From Deltaproteobacteria bacterium (GTDB lineage: Bacteria; Desulfobacterota; GWC2-55-46), in NCBI GenBank assembly GCA_015075075.1, contig JABTVA010000012.1:4655-68654 (forward strand): a stretch of 64,000 nucleotides of DNA. The letters are read 5' to 3'. Below the pieces are notes generated by a model, which saw only the letters and a list, made by a program, of their open reading frames with translations, was not told the origin of the DNA and did no database searches. Made by a program: the position numbers and the translations under genes. Positions 3,307 to 42,899 of the stretch are shown here, one piece after another. Position 1 is the stretch's first letter. Each line of letters begins with the position of its first letter.

Positions 3307-5469
3307 TTAATGTTCGAGCCTCCCCTGCACGCCCGCGACCCTGCCGAGGCCCAGCAGGTTGAAGGTGAGGTATACGAGCTTCTCCTCGAGCCGTTCCGTG
3401 TAAGTGAGGGTTGCGCTCCAGCACTGCTGGAAGTACTCCAGACCGTAGGAGGTCTCAAGGGACCTCCGCTCGTCAAAGGAGAACCTCTTGAGGAAGGTGA
3501 AGTCTACCCCCTTGGGGAGCCGCGCCCGGAGCGAGCCCTCAAGGTAGTTGGCACCGTCCTTTACGAACCTGTGGGAGACGGCAAGGCTGTCGCCCCTCTT
3601 GTCGGATGCGGCCAGCGAGACCTCGTAGGCGGTGAAGTGGCTCTCGTATACGTCGAGCGTGCCTTTGGCCACTCCGGTCACGAGCGGCAGGGGCCTCACG
3701 ATCAGCTCGCCAGTTACGTCGGAAAAGGGCCTCCTCTCGTCGCCGGGCCCGGCAAGCTCCCTTTCAGCCTCATGGAAGTTGTAGCTCTGCCTGAGGTCGA
3801 GGTAGAGGTATTCGAAATAGACCGCCCCGTCGCCCTCGCCGCTCCTTCCGGTGAGCGTGGAGTTGAGGGAATAGCTTATGCTGTTCGCGGCCGATCTCCT
3901 GTCGAGGTCGTCGAAGCTGGGAAGGTCGTCCTGGGAGATGTCGGGCGCGTAGACGTAAGCGACCCCAGGCCTCAAGGTATGCCTGAGGGCGGTAGCGCCG
4001 GGCTGCCCGGCCCTGAATACCCGGACGAAAGTCGTGGTCAGTTCGGCGGTAACGTCGTATGTGAACCTGTCGAAGCGGTCTTCCTCGGGGTGCCGCTCCA
4101 CGAACCAGAGGGTCGCCGCAGGGCCTGCCGAGAGCAGGAAATCGAAATAGCCGCCCGGCCTAACCGGCATTGAGAGCCTGGGCCGGATGTCGAGCCTTTG
4201 GCCCCGGAGGCCCTCTTCCCTCCAGAAGTTCACGTAAGAGGACTGGCTTGAGAAGTAGAAGGGCGTGCCGGCGATCCTCTCCGCCGTGCTCGTGAGCGTT
4301 ATCTCCGGGAGCCTCTGGAGCGTTTCGTCGTCGTCCGCGTCAAGGAGGTTGTCGAAAAACCTCATCTGGCCAACGAGGCTCCAGTTTGCCCGGTTGAAGC
4401 TGGCGGAAAGGTTGCTTTCCAGAGCCTCAAGCGAGCGCTCCTCCTGGCCCCTTCCAAAGTCTATGAAGTACTCGTCGTCGCTTACGAGGTTCAGGTTTGC
4501 CCTGAGGTTAAGGCCGCTATCGAAAAGCTCCCTGTGCACGAGCCTGAGCCTCCACCTGTTGTCGGTCGCCTCCTCCGGCCTCGAAAGGTTGTCAACGTCC
4601 TGCCTGAATTCCCTGACCCTCTCTATGCTTTTTTCCTGGAACTGGTAGAAGAATATCTCGCCGGAGCTCTTCCTGGTGCGTATATACCTGTATTCGGCGC
4701 CTTTGCCGAGACCGCGCCTCGACTCGACGTCGAGGTAGAAGGTGGCGTCCTGGTTCCTGGCTATGGCCCAGAAATAAGAGGTGTCGAGGATAAAGCCCCT
4801 CAATTCCGAAAAGCCGGGCCTGGGCTGGAGAAACCCGGACTGCCTTTCGCGTTTTATCGGGATGGATATATAGGGCGAGTAGAGGACGGGGACGCCCTTT
4901 ATGTAGAACCTCGCGTTCCAGCCTGTAAGGTACTGGCCCACGGTTACGCGCGCCGATGTCGCCGCGAAGCTCCAGTCCGGGTCTTCCTCAGGAGGGCAGT
5001 CGCATGTTGTGTAGGTCACGCGCTCCGCCGCGTAGGATTCCGGGCCGGTCTTCCTGATGGAGTCCGCGGTAAGGTGGATGTTGCCCTCGCGGTAGAAGAG
5101 CCTGCCGTTCGCGAGCACGGCGGTCTTGTCCCTTATGTTGAACTGGAGGGTGTTGCCCGTGAGGGCGCTCCCGCCCTCGTCAACGGCCCTTATGTTGCCC
5201 GAGACGGTCCCGACCCCCGCCGCCATGTCGAGTATCGCGGTATCCGCCCTGACGGAGATGCCTTCCTGGGCTATCTCGACGTTCCCCGAGGCGTGGTACC
5301 TGTCAGCGGCCCTGTCGTAGGTTATGGAGTCCGCCGTTATCTCGACCGGCATCTCGGGGCTGAAGAGCTCGCCGTGGGGTTTCTCCTCCGGGTGCGCGCC
5401 GCGCGGCGCGAAAAAAAGAAGGAGGAAAAGGGCTATGAGTACGGATTTGCCAACGGGCGTCACAGTCAT
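3307..5469 (-). CDS. lptD: LPS assembly outer-membrane protein LptD
   Basis: Signal peptide, OstA-like N-domain (EITADSI, ASGNVEI), YTTC, RQSGFL, YFWAIA, QRLPE, C-terminal beta-barrel. Confidence 0.9.
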   Translation of the reverse strand: MTVTPVGKSVLIALFLLLFFAPRGAHPEEKPHGELFSPEMPVEITADSITYDRAADRYHASGNVEIAQEGISVRADTAILDMAAGVGTVSGNIRAVDEGGSALTGNTLQFNIRDKTAVLANGRLFYREGNIHLTADSIRKTGPESYAAERVTYTTCDCPPEEDPDWSFAATSARVTVGQYLTGWNARFYIKGVPVLYSPYISIPIKRERQSGFLQPRPGFSELRGFILDTSYFWAIARNQDATFYLDVESRRGLGKGAEYRYIRTRKSSGEIFFYQFQEKSIERVREFRQDVDNLSRPEEATDNRWRLRLVHRELFDSGLNLRANLNLVSDDEYFIDFGRGQEERSLEALESNLSASFNRANWSLVGQMRFFDNLLDADDDETLQRLPEITLTSTAERIAGTPFYFSSQSSYVNFWREEGLRGQRLDIRPRLSMPVRPGGYFDFLLSAGPAATLWFVERHPEEDRFDRFTYDVTAELTTTFVRVFRAGQPGATALRHTLRPGVAYVYAPDISQDDLPSFDDLDRRSAANSISYSLNSTLTGRSGEGDGAVYFEYLYLDLRQSYNFHEAERELAGPGDERRPFSDVTGELIVRPLPLVTGVAKGTLDVYESHFTAYEVSLAASDKRGDSLAVSHRFVKDGANYLEGSLRARLPKGVDFTFLKRFSFDERRSLETSYGLEYFQQCWSATLTYTERLEEKLVYLTFNLLGLGRVAGVQGRLEH

Positions 5470-5550
5470 TTCGCCTTGGAGAGTGGAATTGCGGATTAGC
5501 GGAAAAAATTAGCACATGCAGGGGGTTTTTACAAGGCAAAGCTCTTATCT

Positions 5551-5943
5551 GCGAAAAGGCCTTTTCCGCGCTTCCGCGCGGTTCGAGGGTAAGGCTCGCT
5601 TGCTTGTCCACCTCCCCCATCCCGTGCACGGGCCCCTAAAGTCGCTCCGCTCCTCCCGCCCCGGCCCGTTCACGCTCAGCCTCCCTTATGCTACGCTCGC
5701 CTTACCCTCCGGGGTATGTTCAAAACATAAGAAGCTTAATGTAATTTGTCTTTGTATTTCAAATATTCCCAAGGGCATAGGGCGTAGTGAGCATAGGGCT
5801 GGGGGGAGGGCGGGCGAGGCGAGGGAGCAGGAGCTCGGCCCCTTGAGGCCGAGCGACATAAGGGCCGAGACCGGAGGCTGGAGGCGGTTAGCGAGCGGAG
5901 CCCTATGACCGAAAGCGCGGCAGCGCGTTAAAAGGCATTTTGC
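5551..5943. repeat. Family C ~390-nt structured palindromic element, copy 1
   Basis: Collinear homolog at 41339-41735; terminal inverted repeat plus internal helices. Confidence 0.85.
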
Positions 5944-5995
5944 TAAAGAGTATAGCGGATTGCGAAAATCGCTAAAATGATTGATCAGGGCGGAG

Positions 5996-7274
5996 TTATT
6001 TTCTCTTTAATCCGGCCCTTCTCAAATAACCCCTTGCCTCTCCCACCGTGAAGAGCGAGCCTGTCACGCAGACCGCGCCCCGGGGACCGGCCAAGAGAAG
6101 GGCCTCTTTCAGGGCGTCCTTGACGCGCTCCCTTATTATAGCCTCTTTCCCGAACCGCTCGATTCTCCCGGAGAGCGCCCTGGGGCTCTCCGAGCGTTCG
6201 TTCATCGGGCTCGTGGCGATTACCATCCGGCACGAGGGTAGGATCTCTTTTAGTATCCCGTCTATGTCCTTGTCCGCCATTACGCCCAGCACAAGCACGG
6301 GTTTTTTCCCAAGGCCCTCAAGGGCAAGGGCGAGCGTCCTTGCTCCCGCGGGGTTGTGCGCGCCGTCGAGCACCACGAACGGCTTCCGTGACATTACCTC
6401 GAACCTGCCGGGCCATGCGGCTTTCTTGAGCCCTTCCCTTGCCGCCTTTACCTGGATATCGAAGCCCTTTCTCTTTAGGACCTCTACGGCAGCGAGCGCG
6501 CAAGCCGCGTTCCTTACCTGATGGGGGCCCAGAAGCCCGAGCTTCAGGTTTTCAAGGCGCATGTCGATTCCATCGTAAGCGAAGGAGCGCGGCTCGCCTG
6601 TGGCGCTGAAATCCTTACCGATTACATGGAGAGGCGAGGACAGCTTTTTCGCGGTCCTGCTTATTACGGAGAGGGGGCCCTTTCCGTCCTCTCCGGTTAC
6701 CACGGGCCTTCCGGGTTTGATTATCCCCGCCTTTTCAAAGGCTATCTCTTCGAGGCTTTTGCCGAGGAAGCGCGTATGGTCCACGCCTATGTTAGTTATG
6801 ACGGACACTTCCGGAGTTACGACGTTCGTAGCGTCGAACCGTCCTCCCCTGCCGGTCTCGATTACCGCAATGTCGGCCATCTTTTCCCTGAAATGGAGGA
6901 ACGCCATCGCGGCCGGAACTCGAAGAAGGTGAGGGGGGGAGCTGCCGGTCATCTTCGCTGCCGCCGATCTGACGGCCTTGATCGCGCGATGAGCTCCGGT
7001 CCGGCATCATCTTCCCGGAGACGCGTATTCTCTCATTGAACCTTTCGAGGTGGGGCGAGGTGAGGCTCGTCCGAGGCCGGCTTGAAGGGATGGAAGCTAT
7101 GATGGCTGAGGTGGAGCCCTTGCCGTTGGTCCCGGCTACGTGGATAACCGGGAAGCTTTTCTGGGGGTCTTCGAGGAGCGAGACTATCTCTCTTATCCTC
7201 TTAAGCCCCGGCCTTATGCCGTGCTTTTCGAGGCCGTAGAGGAAAGATAGAGCCGGGTCCGGATGCCGCATCAA
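5996..7274 (-). CDS. folC: Bifunctional folylpolyglutamate synthase/dihydrofolate synthase (frameshifted ~6900-7080)
   Basis: [46 protein letters not shown]. Confidence 0.92.
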
Positions 7275-39775: not shown

Positions 39776-39912
39776 AACTGAAACGAGAATTATCGGAGTT
39801 CTTAATATGAATCATAATCCCCCTTCCTTCCTTTTTGAAAGGTAGGGAATTTAATAAAAGGCTCTCATTTAAAAACGATACCTTTTGACGCGTTAGTGTT
39901 TTTAATTTGCTG

Positions 39913-41328
39913 ATGGAAAAACCATATCTGATCGACAGCCACGCCCACCTCGACGACCCGCGGTTCGCGGACGACCTCGAAGAGGTCATAACCAGGGCCA
40001 AAGAAGCGGGGCTCAAGAAGATAATCACGGTAGGGTGCTGGAGCAAGAAGGACGGCTTCGAAAAGCCCATGGAGCTTGCCTCGAAGTACGACCTCCTCTA
40101 TCTTGCGCTCGGGGTGCACCCGCACGACTCCAGGGACGCCGCAGGCAAGGCCCCCTGGGCCGAGATAAGAAAGTTCGCGCTCGGAGAGGACGCCGCCGCG
40201 GCAAAAAAGCTCGTGGCAATAGGCGAAACCGGGCTCGACTACTATTACGACCACTCGCCCAAAAAGGCGCAGAAGGACGCGTTCGTAAAGCAGATAAGGC
40301 TTGCGAGGGAACTGAACCTCCCGCTCATCATACATACGAGGGACGCGGAGTCCGACACCCTCGACATACTCCGCTCCGAGGGGGCGGGGGAGACAGGCGG
40401 GGTCTTCCATTGCTTCTCGGGCACGAAGGAGACCGCGAAGGCCGCCCTGGACATGGGCTTCCACCTCTCCTTTACGGGTGTCGTCACCTTCTCCAAGGCC
40501 GAGGCCCTTCGCGAGGTCGTAAAGACCGTTCCGATAGAGAAGATGCTCGTCGAGACAGACTGCCCCTATCTCGCGCCCGAGCCTTACAGGGGCCGGAGGA
40601 ACGAGCCTTCGTTCGTGCTTGAGACCGCGAGGGAGATAGCGGCGATAAAGGGCTTGAGCGTAAACGACGTATCGAGGATAACGAGCCTGAACGCCGAGGA
40701 GCTCTTCGGCCTCCGGGGCGGAACGGACAAGGCCCGGATAGCATATCCCATAAGGAATTCGCTTTACCTAAATATAACCAACAGGTGCTCGAACCACTGC
40801 ACCTTCTGCGCCAAGTTCAAGTCATATACGGTCAAGGGGCATTACCTGAGGCTACGCGAGGAGCCTACCTTTGCCGAGATAATCTCCGCCATAGGCCCGG
40901 ACCCGGAGGAGAAGTACGACGAGATAGTCTTCTGCGGCTTCGGGGAGCCGCTGATAAGGCTCGATATCGTCAAAGAGGTCGGGATGTACCTTAAGCGGAG
41001 GGGCTGCAGGATCCGGATAGACACCGACGGCCTGGCGAACCTCGTCCACGGGAGGAACGTGCTGCCGGAACTGAAGTTCGTGGACTGCGTTTCCGTGAGC
41101 CTCAACGCCCCGGATTCCAAGACCTACCAGAAGCTCGTCAAGACCCCCTTCAAGGACGACGCCTTTCCCGCCATACTCTTTTTCCTGAGAGAAGCGAAGA
41201 AGCACATATCGAAGGTCGTGGCAAGCGTGGTCGCCGTGCCAGGCCTCGATATCGAGGCCTGCCGGAAGGTAGCCGAGGACGAGCTGGGGGTTAAGTTCAG
41301 GGTGAGGGAGTATAATACGGTAGGGTAA
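39913..41328 (+). CDS. TatD family nuclease fused to TatD-associated radical SAM domain
   Basis: DSHAH, GETGLDY, HTR, ETDCPYL; then YLNITNRCSNHCTFC and FCGFGEP. Confidence 0.9.
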   Translation: MEKPYLIDSHAHLDDPRFADDLEEVITRAKEAGLKKIITVGCWSKKDGFEKPMELASKYDLLYLALGVHPHDSRDAAGKAPWAEIRKFALGEDAAAAKKLVAIGETGLDYYYDHSPKKAQKDAFVKQIRLARELNLPLIIHTRDAESDTLDILRSEGAGETGGVFHCFSGTKETAKAALDMGFHLSFTGVVTFSKAEALREVVKTVPIEKMLVETDCPYLAPEPYRGRRNEPSFVLETAREIAAIKGLSVNDVSRITSLNAEELFGLRGGTDKARIAYPIRNSLYLNITNRCSNHCTFCAKFKSYTVKGHYLRLREEPTFAEIISAIGPDPEEKYDEIVFCGFGEPLIRLDIVKEVGMYLKRRGCRIRIDTDGLANLVHGRNVLPELKFVDCVSVSLNAPDSKTYQKLVKTPFKDDAFPAILFFLREAKKHISKVVASVVAVPGLDIEACRKVAEDELGVKFRVREYNTVG

Positions 41329-41338
41329 GTTTTTTTGT

Positions 41339-41735
41339 TGCCCGAAGCCCTTTTCCGCGCTGCCGCGCGGATAGAGGGTAAGGGCTCGCTTGTTATCTGC
41401 CTCCCCCACCACGTGAACGGGCCCCTGAAGTCGCTTCGCTCCTACAGCCTCGGCCCGTTCACGCTCTTCCTCCCTTATACTTCGCTCGCCCTTACCCTCC
41501 GGGGTTTGTTTCAGGACAAGAAATCTTACATCCTTAGTTGTTTTGCATTTCAAACCACCCAGGGGCATAAGGCGGAGCGAACATAGGGATAGGGGAGGGC
41601 GGGCGAGGCAGGGCAGCAGGAGCGAGGCCCCGAAGCGGGCCGAGCGACATAAGGGCCGAGCCCGGAGGAAGGAGGCGGAAAGAAAGCGGAGCCTTATGCC
41701 CAAAAAGAGCGCGGCAGCGCGCAAAGGCTTTTGCA
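41339..41735. repeat. Family C ~390-nt structured palindromic element, copy 2
   Basis: Collinear homolog of 5551-5943. Confidence 0.85.
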
Positions 41736-42034: not shown

Positions 42035-42899
42035 ATGTCATTCAAGTCAGGTTTCGTTTCCATAATAGGCAGGCCCAACGCGGGCAAGTCCACGCTCTTG
42101 AATAGCGTCCTCGGCGAGAAGATATCCATCGTCTCGCCCAAGCCGCAGACGACCCGGAACGTCGTAAGGGGCATCAAGAACCTCGAAGGCTGCCAGATGG
42201 TCTTCATAGACACGCCCGGCATACACAAGGGCAAGGCCTCCTTAACGAACGGATGGTAAGGGAGGCTGTCGCGTCATTAAAGGACGTGGACGCCGTGGTC
42301 CTCCTTGTCGAGGCCGACAGGCCCGTTACGGACGAGGACAGGCACATAATCAACTCGCTTAAGGGCCTCAAGTGCCCTGTCATTCTCAGGTAAACAAGGT
42401 AGACAGGATAGACAAGCGGCAGATACTCCCGCTTATCCACGAATATTCGAAGATGTACTCGTTCAGGAAGTGATACCTTTCGGCGCTAAAGGAGAGGGTG
42501 AGCTCTTGTCGGTACGCTCTCGGCCCTCATGCCCGAGGTCCAAAATACTTCGGACGACGTCCTTACCGACGTGCCCAGAGGTTCATAGCCGCGGAGATAG
42601 TGAGGGAGAAGGTCTTTCTATTCGTCCGCGAGGAGATACCCTACTCGGTCGCCGTGGTCGTGGACAAGTTCATTGAGAAGAAGGGGCTCATATCCATAAC
42701 CGCCACCATAAACGTCGAGAGGGAGTCCCAGAAGGGCATAATCATCGGCAAGGGCGGGTCCATGCTCAAGAAGATAGGCACTTCCGCGCGCGAGGAGATA
42801 GAGAAGCTCCTCGGCTCCAGGGTTTTTTTGGAGCTGTTCGTCCGCGTCCAGAAGGAGTGGACAAAGAAGCCGGGCGCGCTGAAGGAGTTCGGTTACTGA
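42035..42899 (+). CDS. era: GTPase Era (frameshifted in assembly)
   Basis: [35 protein letters not shown] domain. Confidence 0.93.

Follow-up and report, generated by a model that had tools for sequence, protein, structure and literature searches.

A dispersed family of structured intergenic elements in one family of uncultured Thermodesulfobacteriota, probably retained by selection as RNA at transcription-unit ends

Introduction

Bacterial intergenic repeats are usually dismissed as selfish hairpins. A 64-kb stretch of DNA (hereafter the window) carries two copies of an element of about 390 nt, which raise the question of whether such a repeat persists by its own spread or is kept by the host for the structure that it forms. 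A preliminary description of the window had presented the element as a two-copy repeat with a multi-helix structure, and had suggested either a structured non-coding RNA or a non-autonomous mobile element. Here, we characterized the architecture of the element, the pairing supported by sequence change among its copies, its distribution, its history at individual loci and its genomic setting, and weighed the explanations that could account for them.

Position and architecture of the element

Both copies were found at the positions given in the preliminary description. They are collinear, with a mean column identity of 85% when the flanks are included, and all of the helices quoted there are present in the sequence, including the matched indel of copy 2 and its change from G-C to A-T. 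The absence of a transposase beside either copy was likewise borne out, the neighbors being lptD, a Mur-ligase gene, a TatD/radical-SAM gene and era. The features of the two copies are as follows.

3307-5469, minus strand: lptD, beside copy 1
5551-5943, no strand assigned: copy 1, full two-unit element, between the stop of the Mur-ligase gene and the start of lptD
5554-5565, no strand assigned: left-end terminal palindrome of copy 1 (12 bp, AAAAGGCCTTTT), read in the sequence, the termini being aligned in 14 full copies
5558-5712, minus (G-rich) strand: copy 1, L' unit, scored at 70.5 bits by the covariance model (E 1.2e-13)
5566-5581: P4 hairpin of the copy 1 L' unit (CCGCGC-TTCC-GCGCGG)
5585-5595 with 5699-5709: P1 of the copy 1 L' unit (GAGGGTAAGGC with GCCTTACCCTC)
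5623-5634 with 5663-5674: P2 of the copy 1 L' unit (CGTGCACGGGCC with GGCCCGTTCACG)
5713-5769, no strand assigned: AT-rich central spacer of copy 1, which carries the 5' leaders of both units and whose middle differs among copies
5770-5936, plus strand: copy 1, R unit, scored at 145.5 bits by the covariance model (E 3.2e-30)
5773-5783 with 5900-5910: P1 of the copy 1 R unit (GGGCATAGGGC with GCCCTATGACC)
5811-5820 with 5864-5873: P2 of the copy 1 R unit
about 5830-5857: P3 of the copy 1 R unit
5914-5929: P4 of the copy 1 R unit (AGCGCG-GCAG-CGCGTT)
5930-5941: right-end counterpart of the terminal palindrome, copy 1 (AAAAGGCATTTT)
5996-6952, minus strand: Mur-ligase gene, beside copy 1
39907-41328, plus strand: TatD/radical-SAM gene, beside copy 2
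41339-41735, no strand assigned: copy 2, full two-unit element, about 15 nt past the stop of the TatD/radical-SAM gene and about 300 nt upstream of era
41347-41502, minus strand: copy 2, L' unit, scored at 80.8 bits by the covariance model (E 6.6e-16)
41560-41730, plus strand: copy 2, R unit, scored at 138.3 bits by the covariance model (E 1.2e-28)

Two of these neighbors deserve a remark of their own. The 473-aa product of the single open reading frame at 39907-41328 contains a full TatD-type DNase domain together with a radical-SAM domain, which is an unusual fusion. The era GTPase gene is apparently split into a GTPase part (42035-42259, 74 aa) and a KH part (42498-42899, 133 aa), which may reflect a frameshift or an assembly error.

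The predicted folding energies of copies 1 and 2 were -202.5 and -206.4 kcal/mol, respectively (z-scores of -7.1 and -7.6), and none of 100 shuffled sequences was equally stable. Protein coding was considered and rejected: a 130-codon open reading frame (5516-5908) spans copy 1, but the copies differ by so many 1- and 2-nt indels that no reading frame is conserved.

The building block of the element is one arm, a unit of 165-195 nt. An alignment of half copies revealed that each arm stands as a unit by itself. A profile built from right arms detected left arms on the opposite strand, and the two arms (R and L') are therefore diverged homologs, in agreement with the earlier remark that they are inverted copies of each other. 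The 390-nt form consists of two such diverged units placed back to back, L' on the minus and R on the plus strand, diverging from the AT-rich spacer; thus, each arm would fold alone instead of forming an arm-to-arm rod.

Read on its G-rich strand, a unit comprises an AT-rich leader, P1, P1b, purine-rich internal loops, P2, P3, an A-run, P4 and the palindrome AAAAGGCCTTTT. Helices P1, P1b, P2 and P3 form a long irregular hairpin with conserved tandem G·A pairs and purine-rich loops, and these unpaired loops are conserved as strongly as the stems. The closing helix, P1, is 11 bp long (GGGCATAAGGC/GCCTTATGCCC for R, GAGGGTAAGGC/GCCTTACCCTC for L'), P1b has the form GC-GA-GC on both sides, and P2 reads CGGGC-GA-GGC/GCC-GA-GCCCG in R and CGTGAACGGGCC/GGCCCGTTCACG in L'. 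P3 is the apical hairpin, and P4 is a 6-bp GC hairpin with a G-N-N-A loop (GGCA in 100 and GGAA in 19 of 147 units). Both ends of the element, as aligned in 14 full copies, carry the inverted motif GCAAAAGGCCTTTT-NN-CGCGC...GCGCG, in which GCAAAAGGCCTTTT precedes the GC hairpin. Terminal inverted repeats are present because the two units are inverted copies of each other. The possibility that the terminal palindrome was a pre-existing insertion target was also considered; AAAGGCCTTT occurs 39 times in the genome, 13 times near units and otherwise mostly within genes, which was uninformative.

Covariation within the arms

The preliminary description had held that compensatory changes preserve the pairing. 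To examine this claim in a larger alignment, we aligned 63 R units with MAFFT, drawn from 106 units less than 90% identical to each other; this set excluded the L' units, divergent units from other genera and six units of R type with unusual lengths, all of which were later recovered through the covariance-model search. RNAalifold returned fragmentary structures on the MAFFT alignments because P3 was misaligned, and it was replaced by a structure set by hand, used for this test, and by a covariance model. In this set 87.7% of the cells could pair (80.9% in shuffles), 24 of the 39 pairs had changed on both sides (11.6 in shuffles), and the covariation score was 0.154 against 0.060, a value that none of 500 shuffles reached, with slid partners scoring at most 0.034. 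The claim thus held. Even within one genome, the pairing of P3 survives changes of sequence, its two sides being GCGATGCC/GGCATCGC, GCGCAGCC/GGCTGCGC or GCTATACCC/GGGTATAGC in different copies. Tandem G·A/A·G pairs were present at three sites in 53-57 of the 63 units, and at a fourth site they alternate with Watson-Crick pairs.

The covariance model (R1; 169 positions and 45 pairs) was then used to align 147 units from 97 sources, including L' units on the opposite strand. Double-sided changes were found at 42 of the 45 pairs, and the score was 0.233 against 0.091, with slid partners at most 0.040; it should be noted that this alignment leans toward the model's own structure, although the MAFFT result agrees with it.

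A further claim was that a cloverleaf and a rod, in which the left arm pairs with the right arm, are both possible. We compared the two folds in full copies: 35 of 43 L'/R doublets were taken (those longer than 440 nt being excluded), and two more were removed by hand, one for an insertion and one for a deletion, which left 33 aligned copies. The within-arm fold showed 10 double-change pairs against 4.5 and a score of 0.056 against 0.042, and none of the 500 shuffles was as high in either measure. In contrast, the rod did no better than its shuffled controls: 82.9% of the rod cells were standard pairs in both (217 of 500 shuffles as high), there were 16 double-change pairs against 15.9 (275 of 500), and the score was 0.071 against 0.069 (58 of 500). 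In the left P4, one pair reads GC in 20 copies and AU in the other 13, the two sides agreeing within the arm every time, whereas its rod partner was broken in 13 of the 33. The arms of one copy were also no more alike than the arms of different copies, the L'-R identity being 0.648 within and 0.647 between copies (43 doublets). Covariation supports pairing inside each arm and not an arm-to-arm rod.

Covariation alone does not prove that the folded molecule is RNA, because single-stranded DNA folds alike. With respect to the strand, cells on the G-rich strand comprised 113 G·U against 85 A·C, a modest excess among cells that are not independent, whereas G·A and C·T cells numbered 876 and 30, respectively. 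The G-rich strand is favored as the one that folds by its conserved tandem G·A pairs and by the G-N-N-A loop.

Family size and distribution

Rather than a two-copy repeat, as first described, the element belongs to a family with about 50 units in this genome and a presence across the bacterial family. Copy 1 gave 62 BLAST matches in its own genome (2.6 Mb, 39 contigs, 58% G+C, 93% complete). A profile built from 14 full copies gave 88 hits with both strands counted, corresponding to about 17 full-length, 11 right-arm-only and 5 left-arm-only copies (all approximate) and several solo ends of about 45 nt; solo ends occur only beside elements. Profile search yielded 49 near-full units, and after resolving overlaps there were 56 unit hits at about 35 loci, none of them inside called genes.

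BLAST detected related DNA in each of the six remaining genomes of the genus, in 13 of 24 family genomes and in none of 16 taken from the order's other families. The covariance model detected units in 26 of 37 family genomes including this one (25 of the 36 others), covering 10 of 18 genera, with at least 1 to at least 61 hits per unit-bearing genome (76 candidates scored in each). No hit was obtained in 40 genomes from seven sister families of the order. Thus, the family is restricted to one bacterial family of uncultured Thermodesulfobacteriota. Three relatives (G001, G002 and G004) carry mainly single units.

The preliminary description had recognized no known RNA family. Consistent with this, no curated Rfam 15 model matched at its gathering score anywhere in the 64 kb, and a scan of 5480-6000 at a permissive E-value gave only two chance lncRNA hits (E 1.9 and 8.4). 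There were no exact matches to a conserved 27-nt core pattern in viral contigs and two matches to the conserved 27-nt pattern in metagenome contigs. A literature search with the motifs of the element as text returned one unrelated human-genetics paper only, and the literature on structured intergenic repeats, searched without supplements, offered reviews of other families and no description of the present one.

Conservation and history at shared loci

At all eight tested loci of this genome, the element occupies the same locus in at least one other species of the genus. We compared orthologous units with their surroundings by using our own, crude gene calls (2355 genes, 80% of the genome). In five orthologous pairs of the same orientation, the units were identical at 1396 of 1517 positions (92.0%), whereas the flanking genes matched at 2938 of 3920 third codon positions (74.9%); their first and second codon positions were 90-98% identical, and other aligned intergenic DNA at those loci 57-91%. 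A sixth pair gave 89.6% unit identity against 85.5%. Units therefore evolve slower than the third codon positions of flanking genes, in a comparison of six loci that rests on crude gene calls and in which the assembly of repeats in metagenome bins could pull copies toward the consensus. Across seven orthologous unit pairs, differences were found at 42 of 577 paired columns against 72 of 534 unpaired columns. Such conservation at loci, although measured at few of them and in metagenome assemblies, is hard to reconcile with purely selfish copies.

The occupancy of loci nevertheless differs among species. At locus L026, this genome (G000) and G005 have a unit that G003 and G006 lack, and copy 1 is missing between the same genes in G001 and G002. 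States of relatives at shared loci include solo ends, outright absence with unrelated spacer DNA and internal deletions; one single R unit of G003 is a doublet that has lost most of its L arm, and at one locus a more distant species has a right-arm unit where a doublet is present here. The preliminary description had proposed a search for empty sites in relatives. No clean one was found, because in relatives without the element the intergenic DNA was unrelated or contained a solo end or a deletion derivative. No direct repeat indicative of target duplication was evident at the ends of 14 aligned full copies or at the compared loci.

Half of the eight orthologous loci show the complete element reversed in a sister species, a state in which inversion in place and re-insertion are indistinguishable. 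The cases are window copies 1 and 2 versus L050, L054 and L056, L003 versus L157, and L005 versus L163. The breakpoints lie outside or within the terminal hairpin and palindrome, and at the copy 2 locus of G006 a remnant of the old right end persists beside the flipped copy.

Evidence of copying was also found. Three copies in this genome (L010:1388-1501, the same as C3:48413-48526; L013; L021) carry a foreign insert of 112 nt at an identical position within the L arm. It is nested behind CGTGAAC, perhaps with AAC on either side of it, and the matches are split by the same gap in several copies of G003. As the nested insertion is shared at the same point, the composite must have been copied to new loci. 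The best unit-unit identity within the genome was 96%, and the median of the best identities was 89%. The family has thus spread by copying, with subfamilies that share indels and the nested insertion, and its copies have resided for long at fixed loci.

Genomic setting, termination and transcription

Among the 33 loci at which both neighboring genes were called, 13 lay between convergent, 18 between tandem and 2 between divergent genes, against 3.6, 25.2 and 4.2 expected (chi-square p 8e-7) from genome-wide spacers (171 convergent, 1206 tandem and 202 divergent). The loci are enriched between convergent genes, and element ends are often located 14-60 nt past a stop codon. Single units in tandem settings had no orientation preference with respect to the neighboring genes (four in the same and three in the opposite direction).

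Intrinsic-terminator-like arrangements of P4 and a T-run were found at 13 of 53 unit ends in the inward direction and at 1 of 53 in the outward direction. As only these 13 ends pass inward, termination is not the conserved role of the whole unit. A terminator tool found one site in copy 2 and none in copy 1, and it is the outer hairpin of the copy 2 R unit with its T-run, read inward on the minus strand (41722-41709), that has a terminator-like score. No sigma-70-like promoter was found in the spacer of either window copy. RNA-library contigs and the DNA contigs of the same sample both break off at 5688 and resume at 5829/5840, a pattern that a repeat would produce. Two further runs (X19 and X20) contained the gene of a relative and short fragments of the repeat.

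Partner enzymes and neighboring repeats

A partner open reading frame had also been proposed as a check, and among the Y1, TnpB and reverse-transcriptase families none was found to be tied to the units. Y1_Tnp was present in 15 of 26 unit-bearing and 7 of 11 unit-free genomes of the family, and the complete genomes G006, G047 and G009 carry 20-61 units with no Y1 hit. This 93%-complete genome gave no hit to the TnpB zinc ribbon (PF07282) or to reverse transcriptase (RVT_1), and has one borderline Y1-transposase (RAYT-like) gene (L132:1501-1866, minus strand). The latter is flanked by a different, GTAG-type REP (GTAGGGTGCGC-NNN-GCGCACC; repeats near L132:1937 and 1983, two within about 120 nt), of which the genome has 44 intergenic copies (for example, at about 1474 of L009). 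The GTAG motif is absent from the P4 hairpin. The element ends are symmetric and inverted, not one-strand asymmetric as expected of IS200/IS605 PATEs or TnpB omega-RNA. No transposase lies beside the window copies, and the genome-wide search for partner enzymes covered the Y1, TnpB and reverse-transcriptase families.

Several other repeats were observed next to units. On their 5' side, about 7 of 11 single R units adjoin GTAG-type REPs, which also occur within one doublet's spacer. Seven of the 11 are followed by another repeat, ...GGGCTTGAATACGAGATTCTTCGGTCGC...CTCCCTCAGAATGACAG (L026:1690-1760, both sides at L022, L030 and L028), which seems to form arrays with the REP hairpin in which units are interspersed. 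At the copy 2 locus of G003 only (L056:1240-1500), a small inverted-repeat element with ends GGCAACCTCTGGAAAATTG.../...CAATTTTCAGAGGTTGCC lies beside the element.

Relationship to known repeat families

The family can be set apart from bcr1, ERIC, Correia and REPIN elements by the published descriptions in the sections of PMC3184786 and PMC3116915 that deal with them. bcr1 of the Bacillus cereus group is described there as a dispersed intergenic repeat of about 155 bp with two independent stem-loops, compensatory changes and transcription, with 5-bp flanking direct repeats and non-conserved sites in related strains (PMC3184786). The present family resembles it as a dispersed intergenic repeat in which compensatory changes keep an RNA-type fold. 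On the other hand, it has no detected duplication, all eight tested loci are common between species, and its units are larger, with five helices, opposite strands and conservation above third codon positions; there is no sequence relation to bcr1 as described.

REPINs are inverted doublets around a less conserved spacer, with singlets as remnants and a hairpin or 'clover' fold, and the REP units within them are about 20-25 nt long, with a GTAG-type motif and compensatory changes across the doublet hairpin (section consulted of PMC3116915). Our family shares the inverted doublet and the less conserved spacer, and one single unit is a deletion derivative of a doublet. It differs in having units of about 170 nt, covariation inside each arm only and no Y1/RAYT linkage, with no sequence relation to the REPINs in that account.

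ERIC/IRU and Correia (NEMIS/CREE) elements are imperfect intergenic palindromes, often located at gene 3' ends and co-transcribed, some of which alter mRNA stability; they form a single hairpin of 100-160 bp, with TA or similar target duplications and a link to IS-type terminal repeats (as outlined in PMC3184786). The present element is also intergenic and often near gene 3' ends, but it consists of two independently folding multi-helix units, with no detected duplication and no sequence relation to the elements outlined.

Classical IS-derived MITEs offer another parallel, as the present elements are likewise short, non-coding and repeated many times between genes, and have inverted termini and nested insertions. 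However, no parent insertion sequence with these ends was found in a search of the Y1, TnpB and reverse-transcriptase families, no target duplication was found, the copies are old and conserved in place, and covariation extends well beyond the terminal repeats.

Explanations for the persistence of the family

Taken together, we consider it probable that the element represents an old, dispersed, non-coding family resembling MITEs, REPINs and bcr1 that is now retained by selection, presumably as RNA at the ends of transcription units. Its original spread would have depended on a transposase supplied in trans that may since have been lost or is no longer recognizable, and selection would now keep the copies because their transcripts fold. 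As a more tentative proposal, which we find somewhat doubtful in its details, the units could act in cis at transcription-unit ends as terminators, insulators or structures that protect 3' ends. Both halves of the preliminary inference, a structured non-coding RNA and a non-autonomous element, are possible, and historically both probably hold.

A stronger version, to which we give somewhat less credence still, is that the unit is a host-retained structured RNA of about 170 nt and of mobile-element descent, about 50 per genome, with a specific function. Candidate functions would be protein binding, as a sponge or an assembly platform, or a new type of 3'-end or insulator element.

We think it unlikely that the family is a purely selfish, non-autonomous transposon whose hairpins are recognized on single-stranded DNA by a transposase acting in trans (IS200/IS605 or RAYT), with the fold being kept since unfolded copies leave no descendants and nothing being done for the host. 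The high copy number and patchy spread over 10 of 18 genera would fit, as would the subfamilies with common indels and a common nested insertion, the inverted ends with subterminal hairpins, the presence/absence and deletion derivatives among species, and the flips of whole elements at half of the orthologous loci. REPINs follow the same doublet logic, and a 'clover' fold has been proposed for their recognition by RAYTs (same section of PMC3116915). However, the presence of Y1 does not follow the units, the single Y1 gene of this genome adjoins a different REP, TnpB and reverse transcriptase gave no hits in it, no target duplication was seen and even the most similar copies have diverged (96% at best). 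Every tested locus is common to another species, and orthologous copies are better conserved than third codon positions; this counts against the selfish reading because selection for mobility cannot yield conservation at a fixed locus.

It appears less likely again that each unit serves as the gene of an independent small RNA of about 170 nt, which would be read on the G-rich strand outward from the AT-rich spacer and would act in trans, for example as a protein-binding sponge through GGA-rich purine loops. Such a gene would agree with the features of the G-rich strand (the excess of tandem G·A over C·T, G·U above A·C and the GNNA loop on P4), with unpaired purine-rich loops as conserved as the stems, with the divergent placement of two units around an AT-rich region and with purifying selection at the locus. 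In contrast, neither window copy has a promoter-like site in its spacer, the middle of which is variable, P4 is not followed by a U-run on the G-rich strand, only one of the unit ends is terminator-like outward, and the nested insertion, which breaks P2 of L', was nonetheless copied to several loci. In addition, we know of no precedent for about 50 gene copies of one small RNA.

Finally, that the whole 390-nt element acts as one long rod, as long double-stranded RNA or a DNA cruciform, is highly improbable: the minimum-free-energy fold of each copy is indeed a rod, but its pairing equals that of shuffled controls as described above, and dozens of single units occur with no partner arm, G001, G002 and G004 having mostly singles.

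Implications

Three traits coincide in this family that the sections of the review cited (PMC3184786) do not describe together for REP, ERIC, Correia or bcr1: a complex covarying fold of five helices, a doublet whose arms fold separately and not on each other, and fixed-locus conservation above that of third codon positions. On the practical side, the family accounts for contig breaks in assemblies of these genomes, and the covariance model can be used to mask or label about 50 loci per genome in this bacterial family. If the version with a specific function were true, a single family of uncultured Thermodesulfobacteriota would possess a new class of large RNA restricted to it, about 170 nt in length, with about 45 base pairs, tandem G·A pairs conserved at four sites, extended purine-rich loops and a hairpin capped by GNNA. 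More generally, if the conservation holds, a family of mobile elements would have given rise to a set of functional structures, of RNA or single-stranded DNA, throughout the genome in this lineage of uncultured anaerobes from sludge and sediment.
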